From Minisyncoccota bacterium (GTDB taxonomy: Bacteria > Patescibacteriota > Minisyncoccia > Phycocordibacterales > UBA918), in NCBI GenBank assembly GCA_018062385.1, contig JAGOSI010000001.1, forward strand, positions 5,904 to 69,903: 64,000 bases of DNA, given 5' to 3'. Below, piece by piece: positions 10,739 through 54,141 of this stretch (its first letter is position 1; every line of letters begins with the position of its first letter). A program made the translations under genes and the position numbers. The notes below the pieces were generated by a model. It was not told where the DNA came from. It saw nothing but the letters and a program-made list of their open reading frames with translations, and did no database searches.

Positions 10739-11269
10739 ATGAGTCGATTAGGAAAACAACCAGTAACCATTCCAACCGGAGTCACAGTCACATGTGATGG
10801 TGGATTACTAAAGGTGACGGGACCAAAAGGAACTCTAGAGAAGCCAGTCCGACCAGATGTAAATATTGCTATTGACGGCAATACTATTACTTTGACACCA
10901 AATAAGACGGTTAATGCACCAGCTTTGTGGGGAACCTACGCTGCTCACGTGCGTAATATGATCAAAGGTGTAACTGAAGGCTTTGTTAAGATCCTAGAAA
11001 TCGAAGGTGTAGGATACCGCGCTGAAGTAAAGGGAAGTGAGATTGTTCTAAATATGGGCTACTCACATCCAGTACCACTAGCAATTCCAGCTGGAATTAC
11101 TGCTTTGGTAGAAAAAAGTGTCGTCACTCTTAGTGGTATCGATAAAGAGCTTTTGGGTCAGTTTGCAGCAAATGTACGCAAGGTACGCAAGCCAGAACCA
11201 TACAAAGGTAAGGGTATTCGTTATCGTGGAGAGTTTATTATTCGCAAACAAGGTAAGAAGGCTGCGTAA
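10739..11269 (+). CDS. rplF: 50S ribosomal protein L6 (start at MSRLGKQPVTIP)
   Basis: L6 N-terminus MSRxGKxP.TIP; ORF track begins 30 nt upstream at an in-frame ATG overlapping rpsH. Confidence 0.9.
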   Translation: MSRLGKQPVTIPTGVTVTCDGGLLKVTGPKGTLEKPVRPDVNIAIDGNTITLTPNKTVNAPALWGTYAAHVRNMIKGVTEGFVKILEIEGVGYRAEVKGSEIVLNMGYSHPVPLAIPAGITALVEKSVVTLSGIDKELLGQFAANVRKVRKPEPYKGKGIRYRGEFIIRKQGKKAA

Positions 11270-11290
11270 GCCCATAATTCGATTTGATAT

Positions 11291-11641
11291 ATGGAAAAAA
11301 CACAGTATAAAACAAGTAAGCGAGTATCTCGCCATAATCGGATTAGGGCTAAGGTGTCGGGTACGGCAGAACGCCCACGCCTAGCTATCTTCCGCAGTAA
11401 CCGCTTTGTCTACGCCCAGCTAATAGACGACGTTACTGGTAAGACACTAGCAGCTTCTGATTCACGTAAGGTTGAAGGTAAGACTTTGACTGAACGCGCT
11501 CAGGCGGTTGGTACAGATATTGCTAGTAAGGCTAAAACTATCGGTGTCAATACTATTGTATTTGACCGTGGTGGTTTTCGTTACCAAGGAGCCGTGGCAG
11601 CGCTAGCTGATAGTGCTCGAACTGGAGGCTTGGTATTCTAA
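11291..11641 (+). CDS. rplR: 50S ribosomal protein L18
   Basis: ...RPRLAIFRSNRFVYAQLIDD...FDRGGFRYQGAVAALADSARTGGLVF. Confidence 0.95.
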   Translation: MEKTQYKTSKRVSRHNRIRAKVSGTAERPRLAIFRSNRFVYAQLIDDVTGKTLAASDSRKVEGKTLTERAQAVGTDIASKAKTIGVNTIVFDRGGFRYQGAVAALADSARTGGLVF

Positions 11642-11692
11642 ATTAATAAACGAAAGTATTGCTAAATTCATTACTTTCATAAGAAAAAAATA

Positions 11693-12310
11693 ATGTCAGA
11701 AACAAAACAGCAGGAAGCTACAACTGGCGCTACGCCAGAGCTTGAGGTGAAAACCTCTACCGATGCACCCGCTGTCGCTGGTTCAGAAAGAACTGAACGC
11801 GGTCGACGGGGACAAGGAGGAGCAGACAAAAGAAATCAACGTCGTCCACGACGTGGCGCTGGTCGTCCAGAACGCGCACGTCCAGAATTTGACCAAAAAA
11901 TCATTAGTATTCGTCGCGTAACTCGTGTTATGGCTGGAGGTCGTCGTTTCAGTTTCTCAGTAGCGATGGTGATTGGTGATAAGAAAGGAAAGGTGGGAGT
12001 TGGTATTGGAAAAGCTGGTGATACTCAAGCCGCAATCGAAAAAGCGATTCGTGATGCTAAGAAGAACATGATTATCGTACCAATGGACAAGGAGAGCCGT
12101 ATTCCACACGATGTACATACAAAGTATGTTTCAAGTGAGGTAATGATTATGCCGGCACCTGGTCGTGGACTAGTAGCAGGATCTTCAGTACGTACCGTTC
12201 TTGAACACGCTGGTGTGAAGGATGTGACTGCCAAAATCTTCTCACGTAGTAAGAACAAACTTAACAATGCTCGCGCCGCTGTCGAAGCGCTTAAACTTCT
12301 AAGGAAATAA
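11693..12310 (+). CDS. rpsE: 30S ribosomal protein S5 with Arg/Gly-rich N-terminal extension
   Basis: S5 dsRBD and C-terminal domain (...IISIRRVTRVMAGGRRFSF...); ~60-aa basic N-terminal extension. Confidence 0.95.
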   Translation: MSETKQQEATTGATPELEVKTSTDAPAVAGSERTERGRRGQGGADKRNQRRPRRGAGRPERARPEFDQKIISIRRVTRVMAGGRRFSFSVAMVIGDKKGKVGVGIGKAGDTQAAIEKAIRDAKKNMIIVPMDKESRIPHDVHTKYVSSEVMIMPAPGRGLVAGSSVRTVLEHAGVKDVTAKIFSRSKNKLNNARAAVEALKLLRK

Positions 12311-12315
12311 TTAGT

Positions 12316-12768
12316 ATGCAGTTACATGAACTAAAACCAACTTCTCCAAGAAAGACCGCCAAAAGAATCGGTCTTGGTGGAAAGCGTGGTAAGACTTCTG
12401 GTCGTGGAGGAAAGGGTCAGACCGCTCGTACTGGTAACAGTATGCGTCCAGAAATGCGCGACCAGATCAAGAAGCTTCCAAAGCTTCGTGGGCACGGTAA
12501 AAATCGCGCTCGCACTGTAAATAGTGAAAGAGAAGAAATCGCTGTAGTAAATCTATCTCGTTTAGAGACAGTATTTAACGCTGGTGATACAGTGTCTCCA
12601 AAGACTCTGGTGGCAAATAAGGTCATCAGTGCAGTAGGTAGACGTGTACCAAAGGTAAAGATCTTAGCTACAGGAGAAATCACTAAGAAATTAACTATTG
12701 AAAACTGTCAGATGTCAGAGACAGCTAAGGCAAAAATCGAAAAAGCTGGTGGAATTGTTACAAAATAG
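12316..12768 (+). CDS. rplO: 50S ribosomal protein L15 (directly follows rpsE; no L30 gene)
   Basis: MQLHELKPTSPRKTAKRIGLGGKRGKTSGRGGKGQ... Confidence 0.95.
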   Translation: MQLHELKPTSPRKTAKRIGLGGKRGKTSGRGGKGQTARTGNSMRPEMRDQIKKLPKLRGHGKNRARTVNSEREEIAVVNLSRLETVFNAGDTVSPKTLVANKVISAVGRRVPKVKILATGEITKKLTIENCQMSETAKAKIEKAGGIVTK

Positions 12769-12783
12769 GTACTATAGTAATGT

Positions 12784-14055
12784 ATGCAAAAATTCTTCCG
12801 CAAACTTACTCTAGTCTTCACCGAACCGGCGATTAGAAATCGAGTCTTATTTATCCTTGGAGCACTGGTCATTTTTAGAATGCTAGCGTCAATTCCGATT
12901 CCAGGAGTTGATCAAGCGGTTTTGCAACAATTTTTTGCCAACAACCAATTCCTAGGATTACTCAACATCTTCTCTGGTGGTGGATTGGCCAACTTGTCAA
13001 TCGTAATGCTTGGTGTAGGGCCGTTTATTACAGCGGCTATCATCATGCAGTTGATGACGGTGATGTCACCAAAAATCAAGAGTATGCACACTGAGGAGGG
13101 TGAAGCTGGACGTGCAAAGTTTACTCAAATCAGCCGACTTTTGACTTTACCTTTGGCTGTTCTACAAGGTTTTGGCTTCCTAACTCTTCTACAGAGTCAG
13201 GGGGTTATCTCTGGACTTTCTACCTTTGATTTCGTAGTTAATGTGATCTTGGTGGTAGCTGGTTCTATGCTCCTTATGTGGATCGGTGAATTAATCACCG
13301 AATACGGTATCGGGAACGGTGTTTCAATTATCATCTTTGCTGGTATCGTAGCAACTTTGCCATCGACCGTTAGTCAATTGGCTTTTACTTTTGATCCGTC
13401 ACAATTACCATTGTATATAGGATTCGGCTTTGTTGCCCTCTTCATTATTTATGCGGTGGTATTCATGACTGAAGCTGAGCGTCCGGTACCGATTACTTAC
13501 GCCAAACAAAGTCGAGGAGGAGCAACTTATGGAGGTAGTTCTTCATACTTACCACTTCGTCTCAATCAGGCTGGAGTGATTCCGATCATCTTCGCGCTAT
13601 CGATCTTGCTCTTCCCGCAAATGGTGCTAAACATTCTTTCAGCCTTCAATTTGTCTTGGGTGGCAGGAGCTAATGAGACAGTGACTTCTATCCTTAACAA
13701 TCAGCTGATCTACGGTGCTATCTACTTTGTCTTGGTTTTCCTATTCACTTTCTTCTATACTGCAGTAACTTTCGACCCAGAGAATGTGGCTAAGAACTTA
13801 CAAAGAAATGGTGCTTATATCCCCGGTATTCGTCCAGGTAACCATACTTCAGAATATCTTGGTGGTTTGATCACTCGTTTAACTCTTGTTGGTGCTATCT
13901 TCCTTGGCTTTGTAGCAGTGTTACCGATTGGTATGCAAATGGCAACCGGTATTGCAGCTCTAGCGATTGGGGGTACAGCGGTGTTGATTGTGGTGCAGGT
14001 AGTTCTAGACTTGATTCGTCGACTTGATGCTCAGATATCACTTCGAGAGTACTAG
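12784..14055 (+). CDS. secY: preprotein translocase subunit SecY
   Basis: 10-TM protein with SecY motifs; follows rplO. Confidence 0.95.
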   Translation: MQKFFRKLTLVFTEPAIRNRVLFILGALVIFRMLASIPIPGVDQAVLQQFFANNQFLGLLNIFSGGGLANLSIVMLGVGPFITAAIIMQLMTVMSPKIKSMHTEEGEAGRAKFTQISRLLTLPLAVLQGFGFLTLLQSQGVISGLSTFDFVVNVILVVAGSMLLMWIGELITEYGIGNGVSIIIFAGIVATLPSTVSQLAFTFDPSQLPLYIGFGFVALFIIYAVVFMTEAERPVPITYAKQSRGGATYGGSSSYLPLRLNQAGVIPIIFALSILLFPQMVLNILSAFNLSWVAGANETVTSILNNQLIYGAIYFVLVFLFTFFYTAVTFDPENVAKNLQRNGAYIPGIRPGNHTSEYLGGLITRLTLVGAIFLGFVAVLPIGMQMATGIAALAIGGTAVLIVVQVVLDLIRRLDAQISLREY

Positions 14056-14070
14056 AGGTACATTGAAAAC

Positions 14071-14120
14071 AAAAAGCCAGAAAAAACCAGTCCCTAGGGA
14101 CTGGTTTTTCTGGCTTTTTG
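14071..14120. terminator. Bidirectional terminator between secY (+) and cmk-like gene (-)
   Basis: Long perfect palindrome gccagaaaaaaccagtccc-tag-ggactggtttttctggc flanked by A- and T-runs. Confidence 0.75.
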
Positions 14121-14126
14121 TTTCCT

Positions 14127-14759
14127 CTAATATTGATTTTTAAATGAGTATCCAAGTGGAATAGAGCTTCTTACTTGTTTCCAAGTGTCAGTTTTTAGCC
14201 ATTGTCGGTAATGATCATAGACAGTCAAAGCTACAGTTTGTGGGGTGTGACGTGAGGTGTCTATAACTAAGTCAAAGTGTTCGATATTGTATGGGTCGAC
14301 ATTGTACATTTGCTTAAAGCGTCGCCTTTCGTTTTCCATGCGTTCTTGCACTTGTTTACTGACGGAATCAAGGGAACTGGCAACTTCGCCACTTTTAGTT
14401 CGCATGTTGTTGCTCACAGCATCTTTAAAGATACGTACTGTCGCTACCTGCATATCAAGATCTAAATAAACCTTAAAAGATTCTGGTAACCAATAGAAAC
14501 CGAGACGAGAATCAATAATCACATCTTTTTTGTTTCTAAGTCCGCGCAGATATTCATCGACTTTAGTATCAAGAGCGTGGTCATCGTTGGCTTTTTCATT
14601 GTATTCAGCCAAGGTCATATGTTCACGTGCTAAGATATTTCGTACCATATCGCCTGAAGAGTATCTGGTGTATCCCAATAATTCTGCCACTTTGTCGGAG
14701 GTTGAAGATTTTCCGCTTCCCGGTTTGCCTGAAATGGTAATGATATGTTTTCTTTCCAT
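14127..14759 (-). CDS. cmk: P-loop nucleoside monophosphate kinase, cytidylate kinase-like
   Basis: ITISGKPGSGKSSTSDKVAELLGY..SGDMVR resembles the CMK N-terminus (IDGPxGSGKST...G..YR); assignment within the NMP kinase family is tentative. Confidence 0.5.
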   Translation of the reverse strand: MERKHIITISGKPGSGKSSTSDKVAELLGYTRYSSGDMVRNILAREHMTLAEYNEKANDDHALDTKVDEYLRGLRNKKDVIIDSRLGFYWLPESFKVYLDLDMQVATVRIFKDAVSNNMRTKSGEVASSLDSVSKQVQERMENERRRFKQMYNVDPYNIEHFDLVIDTSRHTPQTVALTVYDHYRQWLKTDTWKQVRSSIPLGYSFKNQY

Positions 14760-14816
14760 GATAGTAGCATATCATAAAAAGCGGTTGCGAATGAGGCAAA
14801 AAACTGATACTCTCGG

Positions 14817-15395
14817 TTGACTATGGAATATAAAACTAAATATAAAAGTATTGTTTTTATGGGTAAAATCGCCTCTGGCAAGGGCACTCAAGCCAATGCT
14901 ATCAGTAGTCATTTTGGTGGAATTATTTATTCAAACGGTAATAAAGTCCGCGAGACGGCTCAATTGCCAACTGTTTTTGGCAAGAAAATCAAAGAAATTT
15001 ACGAAACTGGATTATTAATTCCAGAGTGGGTCGCTTCTTATTGGATGACGCACGCGATTGTTACTCAGTTTACTGATGAACGAGTGATTTTTGAGGGGGT
15101 AGCTAAGAAACCAAATGAAGCTGAACTTTTTCATGAAATCCATGAAATGATTGGTCGTCCATATATAGTTTTTAATTTAGATGTCAGTGATGAAGAAGTT
15201 CATGCGCGGAGTGCTATGCGTGCCCGTGATGTGGTTGATAATCCTAAAGCAGTAGATACCCGCTTGGCAGAATATCAAACCTACACCACCAAGTCTATCG
15301 AATTTTTTAGAGACAAAGGCACCTTGATTGATATTGATGGCTCTTTAGATTCAAAAACCGTTCAAGAAAAAATCTTTAAGTATTTAATAAATTAA
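14817..15395 (+). CDS. adenylate kinase family paralog with degenerate motifs
   Basis: P-loop GKIASGKGTQA present; DGFPR replaced by EGVAKK; LID arginines partly retained. Confidence 0.55.
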   Translation: MTMEYKTKYKSIVFMGKIASGKGTQANAISSHFGGIIYSNGNKVRETAQLPTVFGKKIKEIYETGLLIPEWVASYWMTHAIVTQFTDERVIFEGVAKKPNEAELFHEIHEMIGRPYIVFNLDVSDEEVHARSAMRARDVVDNPKAVDTRLAEYQTYTTKSIEFFRDKGTLIDIDGSLDSKTVQEKIFKYLIN

Positions 15396-33056: not shown

Positions 33057-33453
33057 CGGTGGAGATGGCGAGAATTGAACCCGCGTCCGAATGAGGGTGT
33101 CTTTATGAGTCTACAGTGTGTAGTTTCACTTTAGGTTTAAACTATTTAGCTATAAGAGAAACCAAACACTAAATAATCGAGTTTCAAGAATTTGAGTTTA
33201 CTACTGAAACGACATAGCAAACCGTAATCTCATGGCTATTTTACCCACACTCCTTTATGAGATATAGAGGAGGTGAGCATCGCTACGGCCTGCGTAAATT
33301 TACGCTAGAGCGGGAGCGAATCCAAACGCGTTAGCGTAAGGACTTGGTATGCTTTTCTTTGCACATACAAATTGCTCGAGTTTTGAGAGAGTCTCGAGCA
33401 GCTCTCACACTGCACACAAAGAGCACGACTCACCGTCGATGCCTAGCATCCCC
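33057..33453 (-). ncRNA. ssrA: tmRNA (transfer-messenger RNA, one-piece)
   Basis: Minus strand: 5' GGGGATGCTAGGCATCGACGG... and 3' ...GGACGCGGGTTCAATTCTCGCCATCTCCACC (T-arm plus acceptor; CCA not fully encoded); candidate tag frame ...GCT AAC GCG TTT GGA TTC GCT CCC GCT CTA GCG TAA (ANAFGFAPALA*). Confidence 0.9.
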
Positions 33454-44947: not shown

Positions 44948-44968
44948 TGCTCACATTGTAGCATTTTG

Positions 44969-45041
44969 TCCGCCAACTTGGACTCGAACCAAGGACCACA
45001 GAGGTATAAGCTCTGCGCTCTACCAACTGAGCTATTGGCGG
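44969..45041 (-). tRNA. tRNA with anticodon UAU (Ile-type, AUA-reading), C1-G72, A73, no encoded CCA
   Basis: Minus strand CCGCCAA-TA-GCTCAGTTGGTAGAGC-G-CAGAG-CTTATAC-CTCTG-TGGTC-CTTGG-TTCGAGT-CCAAG-TTGGCGG-A; cloverleaf parsed by eye. Confidence 0.65.
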
Positions 45042-53203: not shown

Positions 53204-53220
53204 TAAAAGTGTAAAAATAA

Positions 53221-53257
53221 AAAACCTGTCAGAAATGGCAGGTTTTTCTATTTTTTT
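53221..53257. terminator. Bidirectional terminator (serves + ORF 52925 and the minus-strand tRNA pair)
   Basis: acctgtc-agaaatg-gcaggt hairpin with A- and T-runs. Confidence 0.6.
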
Positions 53258-53263
53258 GGGGTG

Positions 53264-53351
53264 CGGAGGATGTGAGATTCGAACTCACGGACCCGTTTAA
53301 AGGTCGACAGTTTAGTAAACTGTTGGTTTAAACCACTCACCCAATCCTCCT
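53264..53351 (-). tRNA. type II (long variable arm) tRNA, Ser-like (G73), apparent anticodon ACU in loop UUACUAA, non-canonical
   Basis: Minus strand GGAGGAT-TG-GGT-GAGTGGTTTAA-ACC-A-ACAGT-TTACTAA-ACTGT-CGACCTTTAAACGGGTC-CGTGAG/GTGAG-TTCGAAT-CTCAC-ATCCTCC-G. Confidence 0.5.
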
Positions 53352-53373
53352 TATTTATATTGCTCAACTCTTT

Positions 53374-53462
53374 GGCGGAGACGCAGGGATTCGAACCCTG
53401 GAGGGTTTTAACACCCTACTTCGTTAGCAGTGAAGCGCTTTCGACCACTCAGCCACGTCTCC
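53374..53462 (-). tRNA. tRNA-Ser(GCU), type II, CCA encoded
   Basis: Minus strand GGAGACG-TG-GCT-GAGTGGTCGAA-AGC-G-CTTCA-CTGCTAA-CGAAG-TAGGGTGTTAAAACCCTCC-AGGG-TTCGAAT-CCCT-GCGTCTCC-G-CCA. Confidence 0.8.
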
Positions 53463-53529: not shown

Positions 53530-54141
53530 TTAATGAGTCAACGCCAAACACACAATTTCCGTATCTTCTGGTAGATTTCCCTTTAAGACTTTGTAGGCTG
53601 AAGACATAGTGGCTCCGGTTGTGACTACGTCATCAATCAAAACTAGGCGATAGGATTGAAGATTTATATCTGTTCCTTGAAAGACGAATACATCATTCAT
53701 ATTGCCTAAGCGTTCATCTCGATTCATTTTAGTTTGTGGTCTCGTGTCTTTGATTCGGATTAATAAATTTTTTAATAAAATATTTTTTCCGTTCACAACT
53801 TTTTCCAATACCCTAGTCACTTGATTGTAACCACGATCTTTTTCTCGAGTAGACGACAGTGGAATCGGAATAAGAATGGTCGGCTTAATTGGTTGCTCTC
53901 CTAGCCATTTTGCTATGAGTATAGAAAGAAGTTTGGAAGCGTGTTGGTCATTATGAAATTTATTGGCTTTGATAGCCGTTCTCATTACTTCTTCCTTATA
54001 GTCACTTAGGACAACATAATGCAAAAAAGTTTTTGGTAAATAAAAGCGTAAAAACTTTTGTGGTGTTTCTGATCTTAAATTAAGAATGGTCGGGTGAGGT
54101 GGTAATAAAGTGTCAAAAATCTTACGCAAGATATCCAGCAT
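53530..54141 (-). CDS. comFC: ComF family protein (phosphoribosyltransferase domain, competence-associated)
   Basis: C-terminal PRTase motif RLVLIDDVVTTGATM; adjacent to pil genes. Confidence 0.6.
   Translation of the reverse strand: MLDILRKIFDTLLPPHPTILNLRSETPQKFLRFYLPKTFLHYVVLSDYKEEVMRTAIKANKFHNDQHASKLLSILIAKWLGEQPIKPTILIPIPLSSTREKDRGYNQVTRVLEKVVNGKNILLKNLLIRIKDTRPQTKMNRDERLGNMNDVFVFQGTDINLQSYRLVLIDDVVTTGATMSSAYKVLKGNLPEDTEIVCLALTH

Follow-up and report, generated by a model that had tools for sequence, protein, structure and literature searches.

Evidence for a conserved wobble-A serine tRNA, tRNA-Ser(ACU), in Patescibacteria

Ser(ACU) belongs to a group of anticodons held not to occur in nature: the review of Ehrlich et al. 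describes Gly(ACC) and all split-box ANN anticodons except Ile, Ser(ACU) included, as 'universally missing', and states that the same 'prohibited' genes are missing from the tRNAs encoded by phages (PMC8007984). An experimental paper of 2024 asks why tRNAs with an unmodified adenosine at the wobble position (A34) are nearly absent from extant organisms (PMC11066159). Here we describe a gene for tRNA-Ser(ACU) in a 64,000-nucleotide stretch of genomic DNA from a Minisyncoccota bacterium (contig JAGOSI010000001.1; hereafter the window), together with the family to which it belongs in the candidate phyla radiation (CPR; Patescibacteria) and in phages. An earlier note, made from this DNA alone, had stated that A34 is essentially never found in bacteria outside tRNA-Arg(ACG). 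The statement agrees with the reviews, but the present family contradicts it, as it contradicts the 'universally missing' generalisation for Ser(ACU). In the open-access literature we found no description of tRNA-Ser(ACU) in CPR bacteria or phages (mention elsewhere is possible), and the text of a survey of virus tRNAs does not mention the ACU anticodon (PMC6409571); database curators may already have seen the tRNA without publishing it.

Several described systems resemble this tRNA in part. Bacterial tRNA-Ser(GCU), for example E. coli tRNA-Ser3, is likewise a type II tRNA with a G73 discriminator, a 3-bp D-stem and U36-A37-A38, serves the same amino acid and codon box, and shares the acceptor pairs G1-C72, G2-C71 and A3-U70; the ACU anticodon arm is the common GCU arm with one base changed. 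The ACU tRNA differs in having A34 for G34 and, in CPR bacteria, forms a separate paralogous lineage that is additional to GCU. Mycoplasma tRNA-Thr(AGU) and yeast mitochondrial tRNA-Arg(ACG) (cited in PMC11066159) have in common with it an encoded A34 presumed to be undeaminated, and a reduced genome; those two, however, serve four-codon family boxes, where promiscuous reading is harmless, whereas Ser(ACU) serves a split box (AGY for Ser, AGR for Arg) and co-exists with a G34 isoacceptor. The tRNAs that depend on TadA for inosine at position 34, namely Arg(ACG) and the Leu(AAG) of some Firmicutes (e.g. Oenococcus), are alike in the encoded A34 and in the loop bases U33-A34-C35 and A37-A38, but Ser(ACU) has U36 rather than G36 and sits in a split box, where inosine would read an Arg codon. 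An engineered orthogonal tRNA(ACU) for reassignment of AGU has the same anticodon and was found by experiment to be AGU-specific and unmodified (PMC11066159); it is synthetic, is built on the type I body of an M. jannaschii tRNA-Tyr and competes with host tRNAs, whereas Ser(ACU) is natural, of Ser type and conserved. Lastly, metazoan mitochondrial tRNA-Ser(GCU/UCU), which reads AGN as Ser, is also a Ser tRNA of the AGN box in which the wobble position sets the Ser/Arg boundary, unlike the window genome in that reassignment has taken place there; in the window genome AGA stays Arg.

Direct reading of the minus strand places G1 of the gene at 53350 and G73 at 53264 (sequence GGAGGAUUGGGUGAGUGGUUUAAACCAACAGUUUACUAAACUGUCGACCUUUAAACGGGUCCGUGAGUUCGAAUCUCACAUCCUCCG). 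ARAGORN finds four RNA genes in the window, of which tRNA-Ser(gct) and tRNA-Ser(act), the latter called at 53350-53263, form a tandem minus-strand pair (Table 1), with the ACU gene 25 nt downstream of tRNA-Ser(GCU). Both match the Rfam model RF00005 along its whole length, the ACU tRNA at 55.8 bits (E=2.6e-9) and its GCU neighbour at 57.5 bits (E=8.6e-10). The acceptor stem (GGAGGAU/AUCCUCC) consists of 7 pairs without a mismatch, the T-stem (GUGAG/CUCAC) of 5 bp with the loop UUCGAAU, and the anticodon stem (ACAGU/ACUGU) of 5 bp around the loop UUACUAA; the variable region of 17 nt includes a 5-bp stem, as expected of type II, and the D-stem of 3 bp is accompanied by G13.A22 and G18G19. The discriminator G73 is the same base as in the adjoining tRNA-Ser(GCU); type II tRNAs of Leu and Tyr have A73. 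The structural features of a substrate of seryl-tRNA synthetase (SerRS) are thus all present, namely a cloverleaf with canonical T-loop, a long variable arm, G73 and a 3-bp D-stem. CCA is not encoded (the downstream letters are GCACCCC) and would be added post-transcriptionally. The minimum free energy fold (-30.5 kcal/mol, z = -3.07 against shuffles) shows the acceptor, anticodon, variable and T arms, with the D region paired otherwise than in the cloverleaf. What the earlier note had read from the letters, a Ser-type type II cloverleaf (7-bp acceptor, TTCGAAT T-loop, long variable arm, G73) with anticodon ACU in the loop UUACUAA and a canonical tRNA-Ser(GCU) as neighbour, is borne out by the sequence, ARAGORN and Rfam. 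The D-stem that it called atypical is ordinary for Ser tRNAs: its geometry recurs in the adjacent tRNA-Ser(GCU), and exactly three pairs are found in 80/80 aligned ACU tRNAs.

The gene has many counterparts. Genomes and viruses were scanned for any type II tRNA with the loop TTACTAA, using the pattern GAGTGG-N12-17-TTACTAA-N20-35-GTTCGAATC. The matches are Ser-type ACU tRNAs and come from at least 120 species-representative GTDB genomes and at least 120 viral contigs. Among the genome matches listed, 80 carry titles, 64 of them with Patescibacteria labels (Saccharibacteria, Paceibacteria/-ota, Nomurabacteria, Magasanikbacteria, Zambryskibacteria, Taylorbacteria, Levyibacteriota, Pacebacteria and Minisyncoccia), nine with other labels and seven with none. 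Some of the non-CPR labels are doubtful; for instance, tRNAs of a 'Gammaproteobacteria' metagenome-assembled genome are similar in sequence to that of Magasanikbacteria, and the Planctomycetes and Flavobacteriales copies are similar to phage types. Of the 120 genome loci listed, 119 yield a Ser(act) call by ARAGORN, with 120 genes in all (one locus has two) and 111 unique sequences, and the 3' ends of these 120 calls are compatible with G73 in nearly all. An accompanying tRNA-Ser(gct) lies within the 8-kb locus in 80/120, and in 58 loci the two genes are at most 600 bp apart, mostly divergent (41) and otherwise in tandem, with GCU first as in the window (15) or ACU first (2). We conclude that tRNA-Ser(ACU) is almost certainly a real and conserved class that occurs widely among CPR genomes and is carried by many phage contigs.

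The ACU tRNAs are not copies of their neighbours. Mean identity is 77% among ACU tRNAs and 75% among GCU tRNAs from the same loci, but 59% between the two groups; for ACU/GCU pairs at the same locus it is likewise 59% on average and at most 67%, and the nearest neighbour of every ACU sequence (112/112) is another ACU tRNA. The two families are therefore distinct, which excludes a recent duplication of the neighbouring gene. RNAalifold applied to 80 ACU tRNAs recovers the cloverleaf together with the variable arm, with double compensatory changes in 17/27 pairs. For example, alignment pair 7-84 occurs as AU (34), GC (30), CG (14) and UA (2) and pair 12-26 as AU (40), CG (25) and GC (15), while the variable-arm stem also covaries in relatives, its pair 48-63 taking four pair types. 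Invariant in 80/80 are G1-C72, G2-C71, A3-U70 and G18G19, which are common to the GCU family, and the loop UUACUAA with its closing pairs G30-C40 and U31-A39; of the loop and its closing pairs the scan pattern demanded the loop alone, and these pairs are found in the GCU family too. A search of viral contigs with the anticodon arm ACAGU-UUNCUAA-ACUGU gave G34 in 51/58 matches, that is, the commonest tRNA-Ser(GCU) arm, and this arm alone was accordingly dropped as a family marker. Since the ACU arm is a common GCU-type arm, the ACU family clearly descends from a GCU-type tRNA. Judged from these sequence comparisons, tRNA-Ser(ACU) is an old, separately evolving family that Patescibacteria keep beside the ordinary tRNA-Ser(GCU).

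Two samples that were not selected by anticodon bear on the conservation of A34. The first comprises eight relatives reached through PilB homologues of 73-83% identity. All eight have comF followed by tRNA-Ser(GCU), four of them have tRNA-Ser(ACU) within the locus, and a G34 version of the ACU body was found in none of the eight. The second is a metagenome scan with the 5' half of the window tRNA and any base at position 34 (GGAGGATTGGNNGAGTGG-N13-15-TTNCTAA), which matched at least 120 loci. Among the 120 listed, 96 have A34 (85 unique sequences) and 24 have G34. The A34 loci resemble CPR chromosomes, with few tRNAs, tRNA-Ser(GCU) nearby in 38 and a recurrent Ile(UAU), while the G34 matches lie mostly in phage-like tRNA arrays and mostly have other T and variable arms, which identifies them as GCU tRNAs of other lineages. 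They share the 5' half of the window tRNA and were rejected as its orthologues. The earlier note had named relatives with G at position 34 as an observation that would count against the gene; the two samples point in the opposite direction, in that relatives keep A34.

The codons concerned retain their standard meaning. In the 69 long open reading frames (ORFs) of the window, which has a G+C content of 39%, AGU occurs 317 times, AGC 111, AGA 189 and AGG 59. The PilB protein of the window is 83% identical to one from 'Parcubacteria bacterium OLB19' and 79-80% identical to proteins of Candidatus Nomurabacteria, Kaiserbacteria and Paceibacterota, which places the source within the Paceibacteria group of the Patescibacteria. 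Aligned with 120 homologues, it has AGA at invariant-R or R/K columns in 7/9 cases (three columns are R in 121/121), and 6/8 of its AGU codons stand at columns where S is commonest or where S, N and D mix. In RecG, compared with 150 diverse cluster representatives, AGA columns have R in 150, 147 and 130 sequences (the first being R in 150/151), and an example of an AGU column has S in 142. The placement of AGA at Arg columns and of AGU at Ser or polar columns indicates the standard code, with AGA as Arg and AGU as Ser. Reassignment of AGA to Ser was rejected, as no AGA was found at an S-type column in PilB or RecG.

The setting in viruses is different. Among the 120 viral loci listed, the ACU tRNA lies in a cluster of at least three tRNAs in 70, the locus holds at least ten tRNAs in 16, and Ser(GCU) is also present in only two. 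These ACU-bearing loci hold 685 tRNAs, 118 of which decode other split NNY boxes (Asn 51, Asp 23, Tyr 21, Cys 14, His 7, Phe 2), and G34 is found in 118/118; the sole other A34 tRNA is Arg(ACG). Isolated phages were searched by BLAST with three ACU tRNAs against 50,697 GenBank phages. Most matches proved to be tRNA-Ser(UGA) and were rejected (121Q, S-SM2, Bastille, Xoo-sp13, DSS3phi2, RN05-S and ZC08), whereas the cultured Xanthomonas phage XaC1 (OR258281.1, 305983-306070) has a Ser-type ACU tRNA with the loop CUACUAA. The class thus appears to be rare among the isolated phages reached by BLAST, XaC1 being the one with ACU. Separately, two phage-like arrays in the metagenome set carry A34 tRNAs of family boxes, Ser(AGA) in L381 (along with Leu(gag)) and Leu(AAG) in L422, and such arrays may harbour unusual wobble-A tRNAs more generally.

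The anticodon is an identity element for the synthetases of Asn, Asp, Tyr, His, Cys and Phe, but not for SerRS. The latter recognises its tRNAs by the long variable arm, the acceptor stem and G73, and would therefore be expected to charge the ACU tRNA. We postulate that A34 stays unmodified and forms a Watson-Crick pair with the U of AGU, so that the tRNA would serve about three-quarters of the AGY codons in A+T-rich genomes, while tRNA-Ser(GCU) would cover AGC and, by G.U wobble, AGU. The loop would be a poor substrate for TadA, leaving no inosine to read the Arg codon AGA. A34 may then be tolerated in the Ser AGY split box alone, both because charging does not depend on the anticodon and because TadA would act poorly on the ACU loop; a change from G34 to A free of charging cost and of inosine would explain why A34 is seen there and not in the other split NNY boxes of the arrays. 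Such a dedicated AGU decoder with unmodified A34, a functional serine isoacceptor, is in our view the best-supported reading and a probable one, and it rests in part on heterologous experiments. Several observations weigh against it. The blocks GAGTGG, TTACTAA and GTTCGAATC were demanded by the scan pattern and are conserved by construction. In four of the eight close relatives the ACU tRNA is not within ~10 kb of pilB, and in those four it may be dispensable, displaced or elsewhere in the genome. The AGU share of AGY codons (0.74 in the window, 0.67 in the CPR loci, 0.66 in the viral loci) is no higher than the corresponding share in other NNY boxes (0.62-0.80), which speaks against any special codon co-adaptation and leaves the selective benefit over G34 wobble a conjecture. 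Moreover, the E. coli experiment with an ACU anticodon used another tRNA body and C32 (PMC11066159).

The earlier note raised the alternative that A34 is deaminated to inosine, so that an ICU anticodon would read AGU, AGC and AGA and make AGA ambiguous between Ser and Arg; such a tRNA could also be imagined to replace GCU in reading all AGY codons. The inosine explanation has in its favour that A34 is encoded, that U33-A34-C35 and A37-A38 are shared with the TadA substrate tRNA-Arg(ACG), and that ACU is usually the lone AGY tRNA of phage arrays, which would suit a reader of both AGU and AGC. In CPR bacteria, however, GCU is kept next to ACU, so that ACU is not a general AGY reader there, and the window uses 189 AGA codons which in PilB and RecG fall at invariant Arg or R/K columns and never at S-type columns. 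The loop UUACUAA also departs from the TadA recognition context, with U36 for G36 and U32 for C32, and TadA is described as very specific for the anticodon and loop of Arg2 (PMC11066159). In E. coli the orthogonal tRNA(ACU) keeps A at position 34 (only T at the equivalent cDNA position) and is left undeaminated by the host TadA; it decoded AGU at 9.4% and AGG at 0.36%, with AGC and AGA below detection (PMC11066159). Whether the CPR hosts have the enzyme was approached in two ways. A tblastn search with an E. coli TadA query found no match in the window and ~1.1 Mb of scattered CPR loci, about one genome's worth, which is uninformative by itself. In the CPR-context loci tRNA-Arg(GCG) was seen three times (in L220, L259 and one metagenome A34 locus) and tRNA-Arg(ACG), which the review ties to the presence of tadA (PMC8007984), never; this small sample hints that the TadA/ICG system may be absent, which would leave A34 of the Ser tRNA unmodified. 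We therefore consider the inosine explanation unlikely. The broader claim that A34 is enzymatically modified, to inosine or an unknown derivative, in Patescibacteria or phage-infected cells and reads beyond AGU we regard as highly improbable; such a modified A34 would, if real, be without natural precedent in a split codon box, and would mean a tunable Ser/Arg ambiguity at AGA/AGG or a phage takeover of the AGY/AGR boundary.

Two further explanations leave the decoding of AGU aside. The tRNA could be kept through genetic conflict, as a back-up AGY decoder that escapes a nuclease or toxin directed at the GCU loop, or as an attachment site or mobile cargo. That altered loops allow phage tRNAs to escape defences aimed at tRNAs is an established idea, which counts for this explanation, as do the almost constant absence of GCU where phages carry ACU and the behaviour of the tRNA pair as a hot spot, with serine-recombinase islands at the 3' ends of both tRNAs in other strains or relatives (see below). 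Against it, the gene is complete, evolves independently and has a conserved linkage to GCU across many CPR classes, all of which is more readily explained by prolonged vertical inheritance than by recurrent import. Nor does any nuclease or toxin gene regularly accompany the ACU tRNA, and PADLOC run on the island at one such site (L001) returned helix-turn-helix (HTH) control-protein hits only. We hold this explanation to be quite improbable. It is harder still to regard the gene as a G34-to-A mutant of a tRNA-Ser(GCU) copy, neutral or decaying and without a function of its own. The anticodon arm, identical to the commonest viral tRNA-Ser(GCU) arm, would suit such an origin, but A34 is found in 111 unique sequences from at least 120 species and in 85 unique metagenomic sequences, the stems are held by compensation around an invariant loop, the Rfam score is on a par with that of the neighbour, and the gene is identical between strains whose flanks differ. 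This possibility is hardly credible, and with it fall both the recently mutated duplicate of the adjacent tRNA (~59% identity, two separately conserved families) and the pseudo-tRNA (given its Rfam score, compensatory changes in 17/27 pairs and conservation in more than 100 species) that had been offered as alternatives.

A dedicated AGU decoder would have implications beyond this locus. The family extends across a radiation that accounts for much of the diversity of bacteria, and phage tRNA arrays often contain it. Cultured Saccharibacteria or phage XaC1 would offer a natural test system for how an A34 tRNA can serve a split box on the ribosome while Arg codons are not misread. The exception also suggests its own rule, as Ser AGY is the sole pyrimidine-ending split box with an anticodon-blind synthetase. 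It would be a natural precedent for separate AGU and AGC tRNAs, bearing on codon-box splitting in synthetic biology and on the origins of reassignment, while annotation pipelines or codon-adaptation models in which Ser-ACT calls count as errors or pseudogenes would handle the family wrongly.

The window copy lies in an ordinary chromosomal setting, with a ribosomal protein operon, SecY, transfer-messenger RNA (tmRNA), a type IV pilus cluster and RecG, and the comF-pilM-pilB arrangement used as synteny anchor is the same in eight relatives. Membership of a phage tRNA array was rejected for it, since its two-tRNA unit lies in a CPR chromosome, with comF on one side and housekeeping genes on the other. 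The pair is probably co-transcribed from the minus strand and would end at the hairpin listed in Table 1, which is likely a bidirectional terminator closing the two-tRNA unit on that strand; a scan for sigma-70 promoters found nothing on the minus strand, and CPR promoters may differ from the model scanned.

The flanks of the pair vary between strains and relatives. The same ComF protein is found on eight public contigs, one of which (L005) has an identical tandem tRNA pair. In L001 the ACU tRNA is identical, but an island of ~4.3 kb (10768-15104) lies between the two tRNAs, at the upstream edge of the spacer, and encodes a large serine recombinase (523 aa), an HTH control protein and a 569-aa ORF of unknown kind; a second foreign segment (15221 onward) directly follows the ACU discriminator and begins with an encoded CCA. 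Islands at the same site also occur in L002 (~10770 onward), L308 (2500-5900) and L316 (1-6257), and other cargo at the site in relatives includes an SduA_C (Shedu-like) protein, a type ISP restriction enzyme, SLFN/AlbA_2 and a Y1 transposase. Two of the four relatives lacking the ACU tRNA at this locus have islands that abut the GCU tRNA, with a recombinase and SduA_C in L316, and a Y1 transposase and a recombinase fragment in L308. The ACU gene is thus constant while its flanks are rearranged, and the tRNA-Ser(GCU)/(ACU) pair is an integration hot spot. In L317 (6195-6510, minus strand) a 12-nt copy of the 5' end of the GCU tRNA (GGAGACGTGGCT) stands ~130 bp upstream of the intact gene and is probably the scar of an insertion or excision event.

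Table 1. The tRNA-Ser(ACU) gene and its surroundings in the window, with the basis of each assignment
Feature	Position	Strand	Basis
tRNA-Ser(ACU), type II, long variable arm	53264..53350	-	ARAGORN, Rfam, fold, covarying family alignment
Anticodon A34-C35-U36 (plus-strand AGT), loop U32-U33-A-C-U-A37-A38	53314..53316	-	Sequence
Upstream partner tRNA-Ser(GCU), CCA encoded; other AGY isoacceptor, different sequence family	53373..53462	-	ARAGORN, Rfam, family comparison
22-nt spacer from the CCA of tRNA-Ser(GCU) to the ACU tRNA	53351..53372	-	Window compared with L001 and L005
12-bp hairpin flanked by A-runs and T-runs on both strands (likely terminator)	53220..53247	.	Plus-strand terminator scan; minus-strand T-run read from sequence
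ComF-like (phosphoribosyltransferase-type) gene directly upstream of the tRNA pair	53530..54141	-	Weak Pfam phosphoribosyltransferase hits

Some features of the window concern other codons. TGA ends just three of the 69 long ORFs, compared with 46 for TAA and 20 for TAG. PilB and RecG align end to end with their homologues and so give no obvious sign that TGA is read as sense; as a stop codon it is nevertheless strikingly rare. A tRNA-Ile(UAU) gene lies at 44968-45041 on the minus strand (Rfam 70.6 bits), and ATA accounts for 231 of the 1394 Ile codons in the window. The same tRNA recurs among the loci listed, six times in the 120 genome loci, four times in the A34 metagenome loci and in 19 phage loci, whereas its anticodon is said to have been lost in prokaryotes (PMC8007984). 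CPR bacteria may read AUA with a U34 tRNA, whether in place of the TilS/lysidine system or in addition to it.

Elsewhere in the window, on the plus strand (region 11693-12768), the S5 gene ends at 12310 and the L15 gene starts at 12316, five bases apart and with no L30 gene between them, an arrangement reported for CPR bacteria and in agreement with the placement of the source among them. The tmRNA (33058-33453, minus strand; Rfam 105 bits) has the tag peptide AKKSIPSPYANAFGFAPALA and is ordinary, and it marks the window as cellular and not viral.

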